From positions 1 to 32,804 of the IMG/VR virus record IMGVR_UViG_3300030117_002054: 32,804 nucleotides of DNA, one strand, 5' to 3'. The first letter of the stretch is position 1. Each line of letters opens with the position of its first letter. The translations under genes and the position numbers were made by a program. Positions 12,991 to 32,804 of the stretch are shown here, in pieces. The notes under the pieces are model-generated. The model saw only the letters and a list, made by a program, of their open reading frames with translations. It did no database searches and had not been told where the DNA came from. Source of the DNA: a virus (taxonomy: Duplodnaviria; Caudoviricetes).

Positions 12991-15900
12991 ATGGCACAAG
13001 TAATTAGGAGAAAAGGTACAGCTACTAATCAGCGAATAGGTGTTGTTAGTTTTGATACTGATGCTGGTGCAATAGGTCGTTCATTACAAAATGCAGGTGA
13101 AACATTACGACAAGCTGCATATAAGATAGATGCAGAAGATGCTGAAAAAGCAGGAGCAGATGCAGCCGCTGCATTAGACGCTTCTAAGTTTAGATCTTTT
13201 GATGAAGATGGTAATCCTGTGGCTTTGCAAGTTCCAGAAGGCTATGGAAGAATTGCAAGATTAAAGTTTCAAGAAGTAGTTGAAAGAAGATTCATTGAAA
13301 CAATGGATAATGATATTCGAATTGAGGCTCAGAATCTTAGAGTAAAACATGCTAGAAACCCTCTTGGCTTTCAAAATGAAATGGAATCTTATCTTAGTGG
13401 TTTATCAAAAGGTTCTGATGGTCGATTTAAACAATATATAGAAACAGTTGGAAGTGCTGTTCAAGAAGCAACCTATATAGGTCTTCTTGAAAAACAAAGG
13501 GAAAGATCTCGGCAAGATAATGCTGATTTTATTTCTTCACAAAATAGTGAAGCAAAAATTTCAATTGCGATGTTATCAGCTCAAGGTGACAAAGGTTTAT
13601 CTGATGCTGTAGCTTTTGCTTATGAAAGAGCAACAGCAACTAAAGAAGGAGAAGATGCTCAACTATTTAGAAAAGGAGCAAGTCAATCATATTTCAATGA
13701 AGCAGCAGGTATTGCGGCTGCATCATATATAACAACGGAAGCCTCAAATTTTACTGCTTTAGAAAGAGCTTTGCTTGAACAGTCAATATCTACTGGTCAA
13801 ATTTCAAACAATAAAAAAGTACAAAATCTTTTAAATAAAACAATTGAATACAAAGCAGGTGATAAAACTAAAACTATTTTATTAAGAGATTTAATTAATG
13901 CTAATAATCAAGTTGAAGTTCAAAGAAAAATAGCCACTGTTTTCCAAGACATAACAAGTGTTGAAATAATTGAAAGGCAAGAAGCTGAGCGTAAAAGAAT
14001 TGAACAAACTAGAGATTTTCAATTAAGCGAAGATGAATTTAAAACTGGTGCAACTGAAGCAGTAGATGATTTAGTTATTGGATCTATTAAAAATGCTCAA
14101 GAAGCTTTTTTAGACAATGGTAATATTGATAAAAGTGTGTCTGCTTCATTTAGTGAATATGAAACTTTAGTTAAACAAATAGATAATGAAGTAAGATTTA
14201 ATCCAGAGTTTACGGCTGCTGAAGGAGAAGCAATAAAAAACAATGCTATGATTCAAACAGCTATGCCATTTATTAAAAGAGCATCAGCTTCAGGAGGAAA
14301 GCCAGATAATTTTATAGCTGCTCTTTCTACAATGGATGTAAACAGTGAAGCTTTTGCTGCCTCAACTCCACAACAACAAGAAGTTATTCTTGCTTTAAGT
14401 AAATATGGTTTTGATGAAAATCTAACAGGAGAGTTTTCTGCAACTATTAATCAAGCAGCAAGTGCTACAGTTGCATCACTAAAACAAGAAGAAATAACTT
14501 TTGATTTAGTAAATGAGTTTCAAGATATTCTTGTTGGTGTCAGAAGAGGTCAGCTTGATAATAAAGATGTTGATAAGTTTTTTGATAAGTTTGATAAACA
14601 AACTAAAGGCTTTGAAGGAATACTAACTCAAAGATTTAAACTTACAACAGCAGTAGATAAAGAAAACGCTCGAAAAGATTTGTTATCTTTTTTATATTCT
14701 TCTCCATCACATGATGCTGCGTTTATAAAAGAAGTTCAGTATTACATGTTAACAGGTGATGCAGGATTTTTAAAACAATCAACTCGAGAAAAAGTTGATA
14801 CAATTTTAGAAGGCTTACCAGTTTCTAGTCGGAAAGAACTAACATCTTTGGTAGAAAAGATGGCAGTTGATAGAAGTCAAATAGAATTAAAAAAAGAAAA
14901 AGACCTTGAAAAATATAACAACGTCAAAGCTTTTGAAAATCAAAGTTTATCTAATAGCAAAGGTAGTGAAATATCTCAATTAATATTAAACAAAACAGGA
15001 TTTGATATTAGTGACGATAAAACTTGGACACAACAAAACATGCAAATTGCTGCAAAGTATATGCCAGAAGACATTGTTAACCAGTTAAAAAGTTTTGCAA
15101 GAATGGATACAGCTAAAAATCCTGATAATTTGCTTATGTTCTTTGGAAGATTGTATCAATACACATATCCTGATGGAACAATACATAATGTTACAGATGG
15201 ATTCTTAGACGATGAAACAGAATTAAAATTAAGATACGCTTTAGCAAGTAGACGTATGGGAAGAACATCAAATGCTGCTCAAGCTATGACAGAAGTAAAT
15301 AAACTTTTTGACGAGCCTAGTGCTTCAAATATCCAAGCTAGAAAAGAAATACTTTACGGAACAAGAAATCAAGGAAGACAAGTAAAAACTCAAAAAGAAT
15401 TTTTAAGAGGTCTTCTTGGCAATGATTATGATGCTATGGCTTCAGTTGAGCTTGGTATGTATACAGATATATTGCTTGCTTCAAATTTATCTGATGATCA
15501 AATTAAAGCAGAGATTAAACAAAAGTTTGAAACAAAATATAAAGAAGCTCAATATGTATTGGATTCATCAAGACCTGTTGGCGCAAAAAATAAAACACGC
15601 CATGCTTTGAGCGCGTATCTTCGTCCACCAGAAAAAGAATTTTTTGTAACAAGTGTTGAAAGACAGCTTAATAAATTTGGTTACACTTTGTATGATCATG
15701 TAAATGAAAAGGGTATTGGTAAAATATTTGACCCTTCAAGTTCTGAAAAAGGTTTTATTCCTACGGTTTTAGTTCCAATGTTCCCAGAGTTAGTAAGACC
15801 AGAAGATCAAACATTTATGCCAATGAAGCTGGTTTATGTGAGTGAGATAGGTGATTATGAGTTGCAGCCTATTATTATTAATGAGGGTACAGACAAAGAG

Positions 15901-25382: not shown

Positions 25383-25784
25383 TTAAAACGGAATCTTTTC
25401 ATCTTTCAAGTCCGAATTTGTTTTTTGTTGTGGATCAGAGATCTCTATACTCATGTATGGCTTTTCATCGCCAGTCATTCGTATCCAAGATGCAATACGT
25501 TTTAAGATTGGTGGTGTAGTCCAAGGCATACGTTTATCATTGGGATTGTACATAGTTCCAGTATAAGCAGGTGCGCCTTCTTTTTCATTGTCATTGGGAA
25601 ACATTACTCCGACTTTCTCAAAGACTTCTACTAATTCTTTTTGATCTCGTGTCATTCTTCGAACAAATGCGTAGCGAGAGTCACGACCTGCAACATTTAT
25701 ATTACCTTGTAGTATTAATTCCATGTCTGCGAATGGTGGAAACAATGCACCATCATTTGTTTTATCATATTCTTTTTCTGCCAT
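25383..25784 (-). CDS. Single-stranded DNA-binding protein (DUF736-like)
   Basis: GALF...APAYTG...ASW...YMSIEIS and an acidic tail ending IPF. Follows erf. Confidence 0.7.
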   Translation of the reverse strand: MAEKEYDKTNDGALFPPFADMELILQGNINVAGRDSRYAFVRRMTRDQKELVEVFEKVGVMFPNDNEKEGAPAYTGTMYNPNDKRMPWTTPPILKRIASWIRMTGDEKPYMSIEISDPQQKTNSDLKDEKIPF

Positions 25785-29089: not shown

Positions 29090-29273
29090 TTATATCTCCC
29101 AATTCTAAACCAATATGTTGTTCTTCATTGAAACAACTTAATTCTATTGATGTTTGATTTGTAAAATAGAAAACAAACTCGGTAATAAATCTACCGCCAG
29201 TGCTTTTTCTTCTATTAATTTTTACAGACTCAACATTGAATGAATCCATACTCAACAAGTTATTTATGATCAT
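29082..29273 (-). CDS. Hypothetical protein
   Basis: 63 aa, ATGA overlap with the upstream gene. Confidence 0.55.
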   Translation of the reverse strand: MIINNLLSMDSFNVESVKINRRKSTGGRFITEFVFYFTNQTSIELSCFNEEQHIGLELGDIND

Positions 29274-30142
29274 GCGTATTCTCCGTAGTATGAATCAAGT
29301 GATGCCCACTCTTTGGAATTGATAGCTCGACCAACATCACCTTCTCTGTTAAAGCTGGCAATGTGTGGTGTTCGAGCATCTTGTGTGTGAGTAGACCAGT
29401 AGGTTAGACAATTGTACAAAGCCCATTTGTTGCTACCCAACTGGTTCTTTTCTTTGCCCCACAAACCAAGCAATATCTCTAGTTGCTTTTCGTTTGTCTT
29501 GCTTACACCTGATTGGCGTGTGTGAGTTTTACAAACTGTTTCTTTGAGAAAGTTTTCAACATTCCAATCTTCAATGCTAGTTTCAGTCCATCTTTCCCAT
29601 TTGCTTTTGTTGTTTAAGAATGTTTCAAGACCGATTTGTATCTTACCTGCACTGCCTTCTATGTTAATAGATGTTGTATGTTTGAACTTTGACATAGCTA
29701 TGGCAAGACCAGACACCATACCGTTCTTGCAAGCAAGACGGTGGCCTTCTGCTTTTTGTAAGAAGCTCCAAGAACCATCGTAGCTATTCAAGAAATCTAC
29801 TTTGTAGTTTACTATGTCACCAACTTCTGCAGACTTTGTGTTCTCAACATACAAGTCTCGAAAGTGGACAGTGCCTTTGAGTTTGGCTCCGTTTTCAAAA
29901 GTACGAGTTTCAATATAATAATCTTTGGATACTTGTGACTCAAGCACAGCATCTTCGATTGAGTTTACTACATCACTATGAAGCACAGGTTTGTAGGCAC
30001 TTTTGTGTACACCAAGCACTTCATTGGTATCTGTTCGAACAATCTGCTTACTGTTGGTAAGCGGTTCGCCAGTGATTGCATTGGGTGTTGGGTGTACTTC
30101 GATTGGGAAATCCCATTCTTCAGTATTAATTGCGTCAAACAT
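29270..30142 (-). CDS. DUF932/DUF945-family phage protein
   Basis: VRTDTNEVLGV...Y, NSYDGS, RLACKNGM and WALYNCLTYWSTH motifs. ATG 30142 with GGAG SD. Confidence 0.85.
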   Translation of the reverse strand: MFDAINTEEWDFPIEVHPTPNAITGEPLTNSKQIVRTDTNEVLGVHKSAYKPVLHSDVVNSIEDAVLESQVSKDYYIETRTFENGAKLKGTVHFRDLYVENTKSAEVGDIVNYKVDFLNSYDGSWSFLQKAEGHRLACKNGMVSGLAIAMSKFKHTTSINIEGSAGKIQIGLETFLNNKSKWERWTETSIEDWNVENFLKETVCKTHTRQSGVSKTNEKQLEILLGLWGKEKNQLGSNKWALYNCLTYWSTHTQDARTPHIASFNREGDVGRAINSKEWASLDSYYGEYA

Positions 30143-30365
30143 TTTGTTCTCCTTTTGCATGACAGATTGCGTAACAGCCATCGTATTTTCCATTAGCTTG
30201 CCAGACATGAAGATTCTCTATCCTCTTGCCGTCAAGATCTTTCCAAGCGTCTAGTATGGCTGCTTTTTTTGTTTTGTGCTTGGTTGAGATTACTATGATC
30301 GATGACGGTACTTCTTTTCTGTACCACCAGCTACTTTTCTTTTTGAATACTTTACCTATTTTCAT
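30135..30365 (-). CDS. Hypothetical protein
   Basis: 76 aa, first gene after the promoter at 30420-30425. Confidence 0.65.
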   Translation of the reverse strand: MKIGKVFKKKSSWWYRKEVPSSIIVISTKHKTKKAAILDAWKDLDGKRIENLHVWQANGKYDGCYAICHAKGEQNV

Positions 30366-30939: not shown

Positions 30940-30960
30940 TTTTTACTCCTGTTTTAAAAA

Positions 30961-31045
30961 GCGGTGGTAGGATTCGAACCTACAAACCTTAGCCATGACA
31001 AATTTCCAACGATATCATTTCTGATAAAACAAATGTCGGCACCGC
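30961..31045 (-). ncRNA. tRNA-like element (acceptor stem and T-arm, non-canonical core)
   Basis: Minus strand GCGGTG...GTAGG-TTCGAAT-CCTAC-CACCGC. No recognisable D-arm or 7-nt anticodon loop. Confidence 0.55.
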
Positions 31046-31148: not shown

Positions 31149-31173
31149 AAAAAAAGGGGGCTTTCGCCCCCTT
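31149..31173 (-). terminator. Rho-independent terminator
   Basis: Minus strand AAGGGGGC-GAAA-GCCCCC-T7, right after the stop at 31177. Confidence 0.85.
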
Positions 31174-31176
31174 CTC

Positions 31177-31869
31177 TTACGCTGCGTTCTTCTGTCTCTT
31201 CTTCCTCTTCTGCTCCGCAGCTTCGTCTTTGTCATTGGTTGTACCACTGACATTCGTGCTGTCGCCGACTCCGTCGGTCGACGGCACATAACCCTCTTCT
31301 CCGAGGGTTATTCCACGAGCCGCTAGCTTCGCAATCAACTCGTCCTTCTTGACGTCTGTTTCAGACTCTGAACCAGAGTCAAGAGTCCAAGGCTCAAGCG
31401 GCTTGTGGGTGATACCAGTAGCTACCTCCATCATTGCCGCGATAGTATGATACATCTCATCTTGAACCGCATACTGCGTTTCCAGCCGCTCGACCCAGCC
31501 TTCGGCTCTGTCGACGGCTTGCAAGGCTATCTCAGTCCCATCGCATGACTTAGACACGATCTTCAGCTGCGCTGTCGCTCGGTCTAGCTTATGCTTTGTA
31601 CCTTTGATATAGCCTTGCTTGTTGACACGTGTATCATACATCTGCGCCCATATATTGTTGGCAAGGGCACTGATCATTGCCATTTGTGAATAATACAGAT
31701 CATTGACCTCTTTGTATGTCCCTGACTCACGATCATATCGTAACCTTGAGTCATAGAACTCAGCACAAATGCGTGCTAACGCTTGCGTTAGCGTGATCTG
31801 TGCCTCGCCAGTATATGCTGCTTGTAAGTCTGTATTGATCATTTCGTTTAGTTCTACTTGAGTATTCAT
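31177..31869 (-). CDS. Early hypothetical protein (230 aa)
   Basis: ATG 31869 with AAGGA SD. Own terminator. No recognised motif. Confidence 0.8.
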   Translation of the reverse strand: MNTQVELNEMINTDLQAAYTGEAQITLTQALARICAEFYDSRLRYDRESGTYKEVNDLYYSQMAMISALANNIWAQMYDTRVNKQGYIKGTKHKLDRATAQLKIVSKSCDGTEIALQAVDRAEGWVERLETQYAVQDEMYHTIAAMMEVATGITHKPLEPWTLDSGSESETDVKKDELIAKLAARGITLGEEGYVPSTDGVGDSTNVSGTTNDKDEAAEQKRKKRQKNAA

Positions 31870-31916: not shown

Positions 31917-31990
31917 ACCGCCCAACCAATCACTAAAAGGCGGAAGTCAAGTCCTCCGCGACTTGACTTTTGCCTGTGATTGGTAGCGGT
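31917..31990. other. Long bulged intergenic hairpin
   Basis: Stems 31917-21/31986-90, 31925-33/31976-84 and 31938-53/31960-75. Confidence 0.75.
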
Positions 31991-32236
31991 TTATCCTTTT
32001 ACTTTACTGAACAGGTCGTATTGTAGGTATAAGAAAGCCTTTTCGGCTTCCATTATTGAATCTACAATACTACTGTTCACCTTCGTGTAACCTCGACAGA
32101 ACATAAACTGAGATACTTCTTTCAATCTTTCGATTTCAATCCGTAACTCGTTCAGTTTAGTTCTGTCTTCTTCTGAAAGTTGATAGCTTAGTATTGTCTT
32201 CCAACTTACTGGTGTAATGATTTGTTCTAATTCCAT
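31991..32236 (-). CDS. First early hypothetical protein
   Basis: 81 aa, AAGGAG SD. Confidence 0.75.
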   Translation of the reverse strand: MELEQIITPVSWKTILSYQLSEEDRTKLNELRIEIERLKEVSQFMFCRGYTKVNSSIVDSIMEAEKAFLYLQYDLFSKVKG

Positions 32237-32280
32237 AATATTCTCCTTATGATTTATTGAACACCTTCAGTTCATCGTTA

Positions 32281-32804
32281 GGAAACTCATATGTCATCGA
32301 CTTGGTGACGTTTCGTCATCCACGTATGACGTTACGTCACCAACCCGACTGGGACAGACAGTCAGAGTCATTAGTCGCACGGAACACTATAACTCGTCAC
32401 GCACTTGCGTGACACGTTACCGTTAGCGACTAATCCGAATGACTGTCGTGGTCTTTGACATATGACACTTGTTTCCGCTGATATGCTTACGCGCAGTTGA
32501 CTGGGGTAAATTGCCTCGACCACTCCTCGCCAGTAATCTCTGAAGAGATTACGAATCAGGCGAGTCGACTGTCGGCAATTTAGGCTGCCAAAAGTGGGAA
32601 CGGCAGCCGACCCCTTGCCCCTCTGGGGCAAATGGTCATTACCCATTCACTACACGCAACCCCCGTGTTGCTTTGCGAATCTGCCATTGCATGGCAATGG
32701 GAAGACCTACCTTCTTCTAATCTCGTTGTTCGAGATAGAGAAGGTAGAGTCCTGATTCGCAAAAACATGGCAAGGCCATGTCAATCCCTTGGATTGATGA
32801 GTGA
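32281..32804. other. Large non-coding, highly self-complementary element (ncRNA or structured DNA)
   Basis: More than a dozen nested perfect stems of 6-10 bp (listed in findings). No ORF with a convincing SD. Confidence 0.7.
32692..32804. repeat. Direct terminal repeat, right copy (113 bp)
   Basis: Matches 1-113 with one mismatch. Confidence 0.95.

Follow-up and report, generated by a model that had tools for sequence, protein, structure and literature searches.

A folded element in front of the early arm in Hodr-like marine podoviruses is predicted to act as an Frpo-like single-strand DNA promoter

Results

The phage genome and its two gene arms

The window, that is, the whole stretch of DNA analysed here, is the 32,804-nt virus record IMGVR_UViG_3300030117_002054, a circular contig whose record is given as 100% complete. 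A preliminary description of this DNA had placed the element studied here across the genome junction; the contig is indeed circular, but the junction itself is a 113-nt assembly overlap, in which positions 1-113 duplicate 32692-32804. The two copies of the overlap differ once, at A66/T32757. This site is paired in 10 of 18 relatives and A·A in 8, and the mismatch is a natural polymorphism.

The late arm lies on the + strand and is of podovirus type, with terS, terL, portal, capsid and tail genes and the genes of two large internal virion proteins; it opens with the terminase small subunit gene terS (218-595, +). The early arm lies on the - strand and encodes a DUF932 protein (29270-30208, -; Pfam E 3e-15), a Holliday-junction resolvase, a YqaJ exonuclease and Erf. 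Its first ORF (31991-32236, -) encodes a variable protein of 81 aa without a family, and a helical 230-aa early protein (31177-31869, -) accompanies the element type of the window. Structure and sequence searches with the 230-aa protein (pLDDT 70) returned uncharacterised phage proteins and generic helical hairpins only. A terminator-like hairpin was observed 3' of the 230-aa gene (31156-31176), and a tRNA-like remnant that ARAGORN does not call lies at 30960-31040.

Among the 36 proteins scanned, a set that leaves several small late ORFs outside, we found no DNA or RNA polymerase, primase, helicase, integrase, relaxase or HUH protein; the same 36 proteins include no conjugation genes, and the gene set is that of a tailed phage. 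Of the two large virion proteins, the 1,022-aa one gave no structural match at E up to 0.001, and the 1,080-aa one, the longest ORF, had no solved relative and 1,090 unnamed ones, so that these searches identified no ejected nuclease or helicase. Beside Erf and YqaJ, a 133-aa protein (25383-25784, -) has an acidic tail ending in IPF and no family match, and is probably an SSB.

By terL, the closest cultured phage is Pelagibacter phage EXVC031P Hodr (OQ414635; 66% identical), a relative grown on Pelagibacter HTCC1062; we found no paper naming Hodr in the open-access literature. A terS search of prokaryotic genomes did not identify a host: the phage-like contigs that it returned had been assigned to bins of unrelated taxa.

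A three-domain fold lies between the two arms

The sequence between the early arm and terS folds into three domains. Domain 1 (32281-32476, +) is a long branched hairpin of exact stems, the base of which forms the predicted single-strand promoter described below. Domain 2 (32498-32649, +) is a four-way junction with a conserved loop at 32590-32601, and domain 3 (32672-32763, +) is a branched hairpin. All 16 stems that the preliminary description had given with sequence were exact and in place with zero offset, and the hairpin that it had reported at 32302-32343 is present as a 10-bp and a 6-bp stem. The element is also GC-rich, as had been claimed (50% GC versus 37% for the genome). When 32270-32804 was folded on both strands with RNA and DNA parameters, it folded far better than dinucleotide shuffles: the z score was -12.3 (+) and -14.5 (-) with RNA parameters and -15.8 and -15.7 for the two strands with DNA parameters, and none of 100 shuffles was as good on either strand with either set.

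Two small hairpins with 3-nt loops (32766-32797, +) follow domain 3 and overlap a conserved TGTCAA box (32779-32784). Short loops had been offered as one argument for a DNA structure; these two hairpins are not conserved among relatives.

In agreement with the earlier statement that no known RNA family is recognisable, Rfam 15 at the gathering threshold gave no matches in the window or in 20 related loci (6S, GOLLD, ROOL, OLE, HEARO and group I/II introns included), and the matches below threshold were chance hairpins only (E 0.4-9). ARAGORN found no tRNA or tmRNA, blastn of the element against phage and plasmid collections returned nothing, and the domain 2 pattern had no matches in prokaryotic genomes. 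A likeness to group I introns was ruled out by the helix order and by Rfam.

The structure is conserved among relatives and favours the + strand

In the viral collection, terS matches occur in about 1,600 stored stretches; from the terS search, 80 loci were kept out of 571 confirmed, and pattern scans added further copies, both close and distant. In an alignment of 20 close copies (19 distinct), 99.4% of cells were paired. Compensatory changes were present: 15 of 114 pairs were changed on both sides, with ten pairs of this kind in helices 2, 5 and 6 of domain 1, counts that do not represent independent events, as the copies are related and recombining. None of 500 shuffles reached the observed level, and slid controls gave 0-1 pairs, a comparison that favours the aligned structure over its slid versions in that it was derived from the window itself.

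The copies gain or lose whole hairpins; for example, 5 of the 20 aligned copies have an insertion, a hairpin of 61 nt, at the site where domain 1 has its 5-nt bulge (32466-32470). Distant copies (L006, L007, L013, L014 and others) retain all three domains with their stems exchanged: in L006, L013 and L014, the stems of domain 2 are fully exchanged and its loop is retained, as is the closing stem of domain 3. Most other relatives carry unrelated sequence in the same slot, yet this sequence is folded too: of 39 non-redundant lineages, 35 had z below -3. These lineages stand for 60 regions, from which 40 representatives were drawn and L001 was then dropped as a member of the window's own family. 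The slot of Hodr holds a long hairpin, and HTVC010P has no such hairpin at its arm junction (z -1.1). The element is swapped freely among phages with 70-85% terS identity, the conserved part being the block that adjoins terS.

It had been argued that the stems need no G-U pairs and that both strands therefore fold. This did not hold in the relatives, where, among the helices that are Watson-Crick in the window, G·T intermediates on the + strand were seen at 5 of 114 pairs and A·C intermediates at none, and the scoring of G-U versus A-C that the preliminary description had proposed for choosing the strand selected the + strand. Clade-wide, 1x1 mismatches were G·T in 29 cases and A·C in 13 (p 0.02; 7 versus 5 in shuffled sequence). 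The + strand, which is the template of the early genes, folded better than the - strand in 30 of the 39 lineages. Read from the alignments, the G·T bias settles the strand and leaves DNA versus RNA undivided.

A separate conserved block precedes terS

The block before terS (110-201, +) comprises a palindrome at 110-124 (GTGACG-N3-CGTCAC), TTGACA at 150-155 and G7-N8-G7 at 180-201. The hairpin at 110-124, which had been taken as the continuation of the folded element, does exist, but it is part of this block and not of the element. Of the 60 loci with at least 700 nt of upstream sequence, 59 had the pair of G-runs. Inverted TTGACA boxes, in the window including the copy at 32779-32784, lie 54-55 bp apart in 24 of 37 loci; G6-7/spacer/G6-7 follows the rightward box by about 24 nt clade-wide, and a TA is often found at spacer 18-19 of that box. 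No conserved -10 was found for the leftward box across 37 loci. A regulated late promoter, a terminase site and an R-loop primer signal are possible roles of the block, and its G-run might resemble the primers of the ColE1 RNA II or mitochondrial CSB II kind. Eight contigs (L002, L012, L020, L024, L028, L031, L068 and L072) end 26-74 nt from terS, at or near the G-run, which could reflect a genome end or an assembly break.

Folding of the + strand rebuilds a predicted promoter at the hairpin base

The base of domain 1 brings together predicted promoter boxes. The predicted -35 box (TTGACA, 32455-32460, +) lies on the right, non-template arm and pairs with 32292-32297, where the duplex reads ATGACA. 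The predicted extended -10 (32479-32487, +) consists of TG at 32479-32480 and TATGCT at 32482-32487 and is unpaired from -11; the duplex reads TGAACT. The template arm (32263-32297, +) comprises 11 nt (-11 to -1), A32274 at -12, a 17-nt spacer (32275-32291) and the complement of the -35 box. A32274 pairs with the first T of TATGCT, and the box is preceded by TG-A. This geometry would set +1 at 32262, 26 nt before the first early ATG, giving a predicted A-rich leader (32234-32262, -) with a ribosome-binding site at 32242-32248 and the start codon at 32236. The leader was invariant in 20 of 20 close copies.

We then compared 31 distinct elements from two phage groups, obtained as 32 pattern matches in 197 loci after the chance match L033 was dropped. 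The 11-nt length of the template arm was retained in all 31 despite sequence change, with the length, like the T at -12, fixed by the search pattern, and it was also found in 23 of 24 elements selected by profile. An A at -11 was present in 24 of the 31 folded forms and in none of the 31 duplex forms, and a T at -7 in 25 and 18, respectively; the exceptions were 7 copies without A at -11 in this register and 6 without T at -7. Because side hairpins come and go, the linear spacing of the boxes on the arm that bears them varies (21, 52, about 74 or 82 nt), while the spacing along the template is constant at 16-17. With a linear spacing of 21-82 nt, there is no linear promoter on either strand. 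Distant copies without TG have TTGACA (L013 and L014), and copies with a poor -35 retain TG (L006, L132 and L135). The same promoter base, with the same three -10 variants, was observed in L145, L147, L161, L167, L172 and L173, which belong to a different phage group.

Across the 39 lineages, a promoter scan gave a score of 6.83 for the folded form versus 5.82 for the duplex (p 0.0014) and 4.23 for a complement control (p 0.005), with the window scoring highest at 10.5. The scan is weakly calibrated, since the plasmid F's own Frpo scored 6.5-7.5 and its class 3 site gave no score, and the complement control reached at least 7 in 15 of the 39 lineages. Promoter matches in the duplex were at chance level (5 versus 3.6), and none that could serve the early arm was conserved; Hodr may also have a weak promoter in its duplex form. 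In Hodr (L095:6590-6800), L193, L198 and L179, the basal hairpin spans the ribosome-binding site of the first early gene, and an inverted copy lies on the other arm.

A second hairpin (31917-31997, +; z -9.2) precedes the 230-aa gene and carries promoter-like TTGCCT-16-TATCCT on its right arm. Its boxes were identical in L003, L087, L092 and L094 and weak or unclear in 8 more distant loci.

The fold, its bias to the + strand, the boxes, the 17-nt template spacing and the lack of a duplex -10 at this place are seen directly in the sequence and the alignments.

Sister phages share a 75-nt module with conjugative plasmids

The element of the window lacks a module that a sister phage (L005) carries in the same slot, which ends in it (75 nt, L005:3798-3871). 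A search of plasmids with the L005 module returned 3,861 records at E up to 1, of which 2,966 were conjugative (best E 4e-7). In F and in the two plasmid records examined, the module lies on the strand opposite the leading genes ssb, psiB and antirestriction. F carries it just 3' of both Frpo1 and Frpo2 (78% identity over 67 nt; profile E 5e-18), at a distance of about 470 nt from the starts of ssb and ygeA and outside the published Frpo/ssiD extent, as judged visually from Supplementary Table 2 of PMC11541004.

The exact module pattern occurred in 51 viral contigs, and in four contigs the window's element type and the module stand back to back. The first loop, readable in 48 of 53 copies, was GNA in 33, GNYA in 12 and GNRA in 2, the G being set by the search pattern. 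Among 48 distinct phage copies, 23 lay on the early-template strand and 5 on the other, and 20 had no terminase gene in view. Further copies were noted at L123:8110-8173 and 13501-13561. The polarity is reversed, on the late-gene template strand, in L045/L159, L141, L158, L182 and L183, and in L159 the module lies between terS and the next gene. In the second phage group, the promoter base common to both groups lies about 720 nt away from the module, and this common base points to an exchange of promoter parts between phages. The module had no match in cultured phages. Its profile gave a best E of 2 for ColE1 and no match for phiX174, and known PriA sites share so little sequence that the module may still have this function. 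A pas identity of the module found no support.

Loop types and the distinction between DNA and RNA

The loop count used a broad list of tetraloop classes that are stable as DNA. These regions, 17,137 nt in all, held 16 cGNAg loops on the + strand and 8 on the - strand versus 4.1 in shuffled sequence, an excess of + over - that is not significant (p 0.15); GNRA loops numbered 5 versus 9.8 in shuffled sequence, and cUNCGg 0. Nine T-strand pieces of plasmids gave cGNAg 10 versus 1 and cGNYAg 10 versus 0. Mini-hairpins with GNA/GNNA loops are described in PMC13037366 as far more stable in DNA than in RNA and as present at ssDNA origins. The boxes rebuilt in the + strand fold and the DNA-type loops support the DNA-level structure, with the option of a hairpin promoter, that the preliminary description had put forward.

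We consider it unlikely that the element is instead a large non-coding RNA transcribed from the + strand, such as a 6S-like RNA polymerase decoy or an antisense regulator of the early leader. The G·T bias and covariation would fit a + strand RNA equally well; internal loops that are conserved and a GGGA loop whose closing pair covaries also speak for RNA. The loop with the strongest strand bias, gCTTGc (9 on + versus 0), is ambiguous since it is also stable in RNA. However, GNRA and UNCG loops are not enriched, neither the window nor the 20 related loci match Rfam, and there is no + strand promoter to the left of the element and no terminator on its right. An RNA decoy would also leave unexplained both the fixed template-arm spacing into the early ribosome-binding site and the module common to plasmid Frpo sites.

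Discussion

Frpo is reportedly the subject of work by Masai and Arai (1997), to go by the papers that cite it. Frpo-type sites have -35 and -10 boxes that are reconstituted by folding (PMC9849209, PMC11541004 and PMC12672017), and the transcript primes the second strand, which turns the promoter off (PMC9849209, PMC12672017 and bioRxiv 10.64898/2026.01.09.698686). Like Frpo1 and Frpo2 of F, ssi1-3 of ColIb-P9/pESBL (class 1) and the class 2/3 promoters of pESBL and F, the element of the window is a large template-strand stem-loop before the first-expressed genes, and its predicted boxes, like those of Frpo, are present in the fold and absent from the duplex. A DUF932 gene lies downstream here and, in F, downstream of Frpo1; the DNA-type loops are those of the plasmid sites; and the sister phages, though not the window, have the 75-nt module at the 3' flank with the same polarity and at a similar distance. 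Unlike those sites, the element shows no sequence similarity to Frpo or any plasmid (32240-32804 searched), and intergenic pieces of the F leading region match only module-bearing sister loci, not the window. Furthermore, it belongs to a tailed phage without conjugation genes and heads the core early arm adjoining terS, and it has three domains over about 500 nt, including a four-way junction, with an activity that is here predicted from sequence. The element is thus Frpo-like in its predicted working and not a member of Frpo by homology or location.

Another precedent is N4, whose early promoters have a 5-bp stem and a 3-nt loop and are used by its own virion polymerase. As in N4, a template-strand hairpin would stand at the early transcription start of a dsDNA podovirus. 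Unlike in N4, the predicted boxes are of the sigma-70 type and lie on a long hairpin, no RNA polymerase family was matched, a conserved short stem with a GNA loop at the start site is absent, and the short terminal hairpins are not conserved. The genome resembles those of Hodr and of HTVC010P-type pelagiphages in its divergent early and late arms and in having no DNA or RNA polymerase; HTVC010P-type phages are described as lacking both in the available text of Du et al. (PMC8477408), in which the words 'non-coding' and 'termini' do not occur.

We think it likely that the element is an Frpo-like single-strand DNA promoter that heads the early arm of Hodr-like marine podoviruses. A reading that we regard as quite improbable, and that overlaps this explanation rather than excluding it, is that the element serves mainly as an ssi or origin, at which, as replication proceeds by strand displacement or rolling circle, RNA polymerase, primase or PriA would prime the + strand, with the early genes under another promoter. 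The proteins scanned include no polymerase, primase or helicase, Frpo transcripts do prime DNA synthesis, and the module occurs in both polarities around terS. At the fourfold sites of both arms, T also exceeds A on the + strand (0.56 and 0.54; coding-strand difference p 3e-5), which would be expected if one strand were exposed genome-wide and may be a weak sign that + is that strand. Like ssi and pas signals (the G4 origin, RSF1010 ssiA, and the phiX174 and ColE1 pas), the element is folded DNA with GNA/GNNA mini-hairpin loops; unlike them, it combines predicted promoter boxes with a translated leader. The module profile, compared with ColE1 and phiX174 only, had no match to either, the predicted start leads directly into an invariant leader with a ribosome-binding site, and a search for a conserved duplex promoter of the early arm found none.

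It is very unlikely that the hairpin is extruded from supercoiled duplex with the help of SSB in the manner of N4, which would need no long single-stranded stage. N4 hairpin promoters are a phage precedent, and the protein at 25383-25784 has an SSB-like acidic tail. However, N4 extrudes 5-bp stems, whereas the arms here are 160-220 nt apart and the stems are imperfect and branched; N4 hairpins are read by a virion polymerase, whereas no RNA polymerase gene was found here; and in a cruciform the - strand half would be weakened by A·C mismatches. Least probable of all, to the point that we give it hardly any weight, is a packaging or ejection signal, which the preliminary description had also listed, or the 5' leader of a - strand transcript: the element adjoins terS and its - strand also folds well, but the strand bias opposes the - strand, we found no evidence for a packaging signal, and the element is freely exchanged while the block on the terS side is conserved.

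For the Frpo-like promoter, the following sequence of events may be envisaged. The host sigma-70 RNA polymerase would bind the folded + strand, the promoter being active only while that strand is single, and would use the left arm as template, starting near 32262 and making the early mRNA. This mRNA could prime synthesis of the complementary strand and thereby switch the promoter off, as for Frpo. Domains 2 and 3 would probably be priming, SSB-exclusion or roadblock structures on the same strand, which is a guess. The step with the least support is the origin of the single strand, which might arise at or just after entry, at the genome end adjoining terS. In P22 and SPP1, packaging is said to start near terS and to run into the late arm. 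If it does so here, the element would lie near the end that enters first, with the 3' end of the + strand there, so that end resection would expose the element. The simplest source would be 5'-to-3' end resection by the host, after which a 3' tail of + strand would be left; alternatively, the strand might be displaced during replication or the DNA might enter as a single strand.

A broader idea, which we hold only tentatively and think doubtful, is that the early arm of Hodr-like marine podoviruses enters infection single-stranded because its other strand is removed or peeled away while the DNA is ejected or immediately afterwards. These phages would then follow a conjugation-like programme, in which the early genes are switched on from ssDNA promoters, their transcript primes the second strand and the duplex shuts the promoters off, with promoter parts exchanged with conjugative plasmids.

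Promoters that the host polymerase uses only on ssDNA are established for conjugative plasmids. In the open-access literature, we found no host-polymerase ssDNA promoter described for tailed dsDNA phages; the only phage case listed was N4, which brings its own polymerase. What is particular here is that such a predicted promoter stands first in the core early arm, clade-wide, in a widespread marine group. The prediction is directly testable, because the start site and boxes are defined to the base and a cultured relative, Hodr, exists. If it is true, these phages would pass through a single-stranded state early in infection, which would bear on the entry, expression and replication of phages without polymerase or replisome genes.
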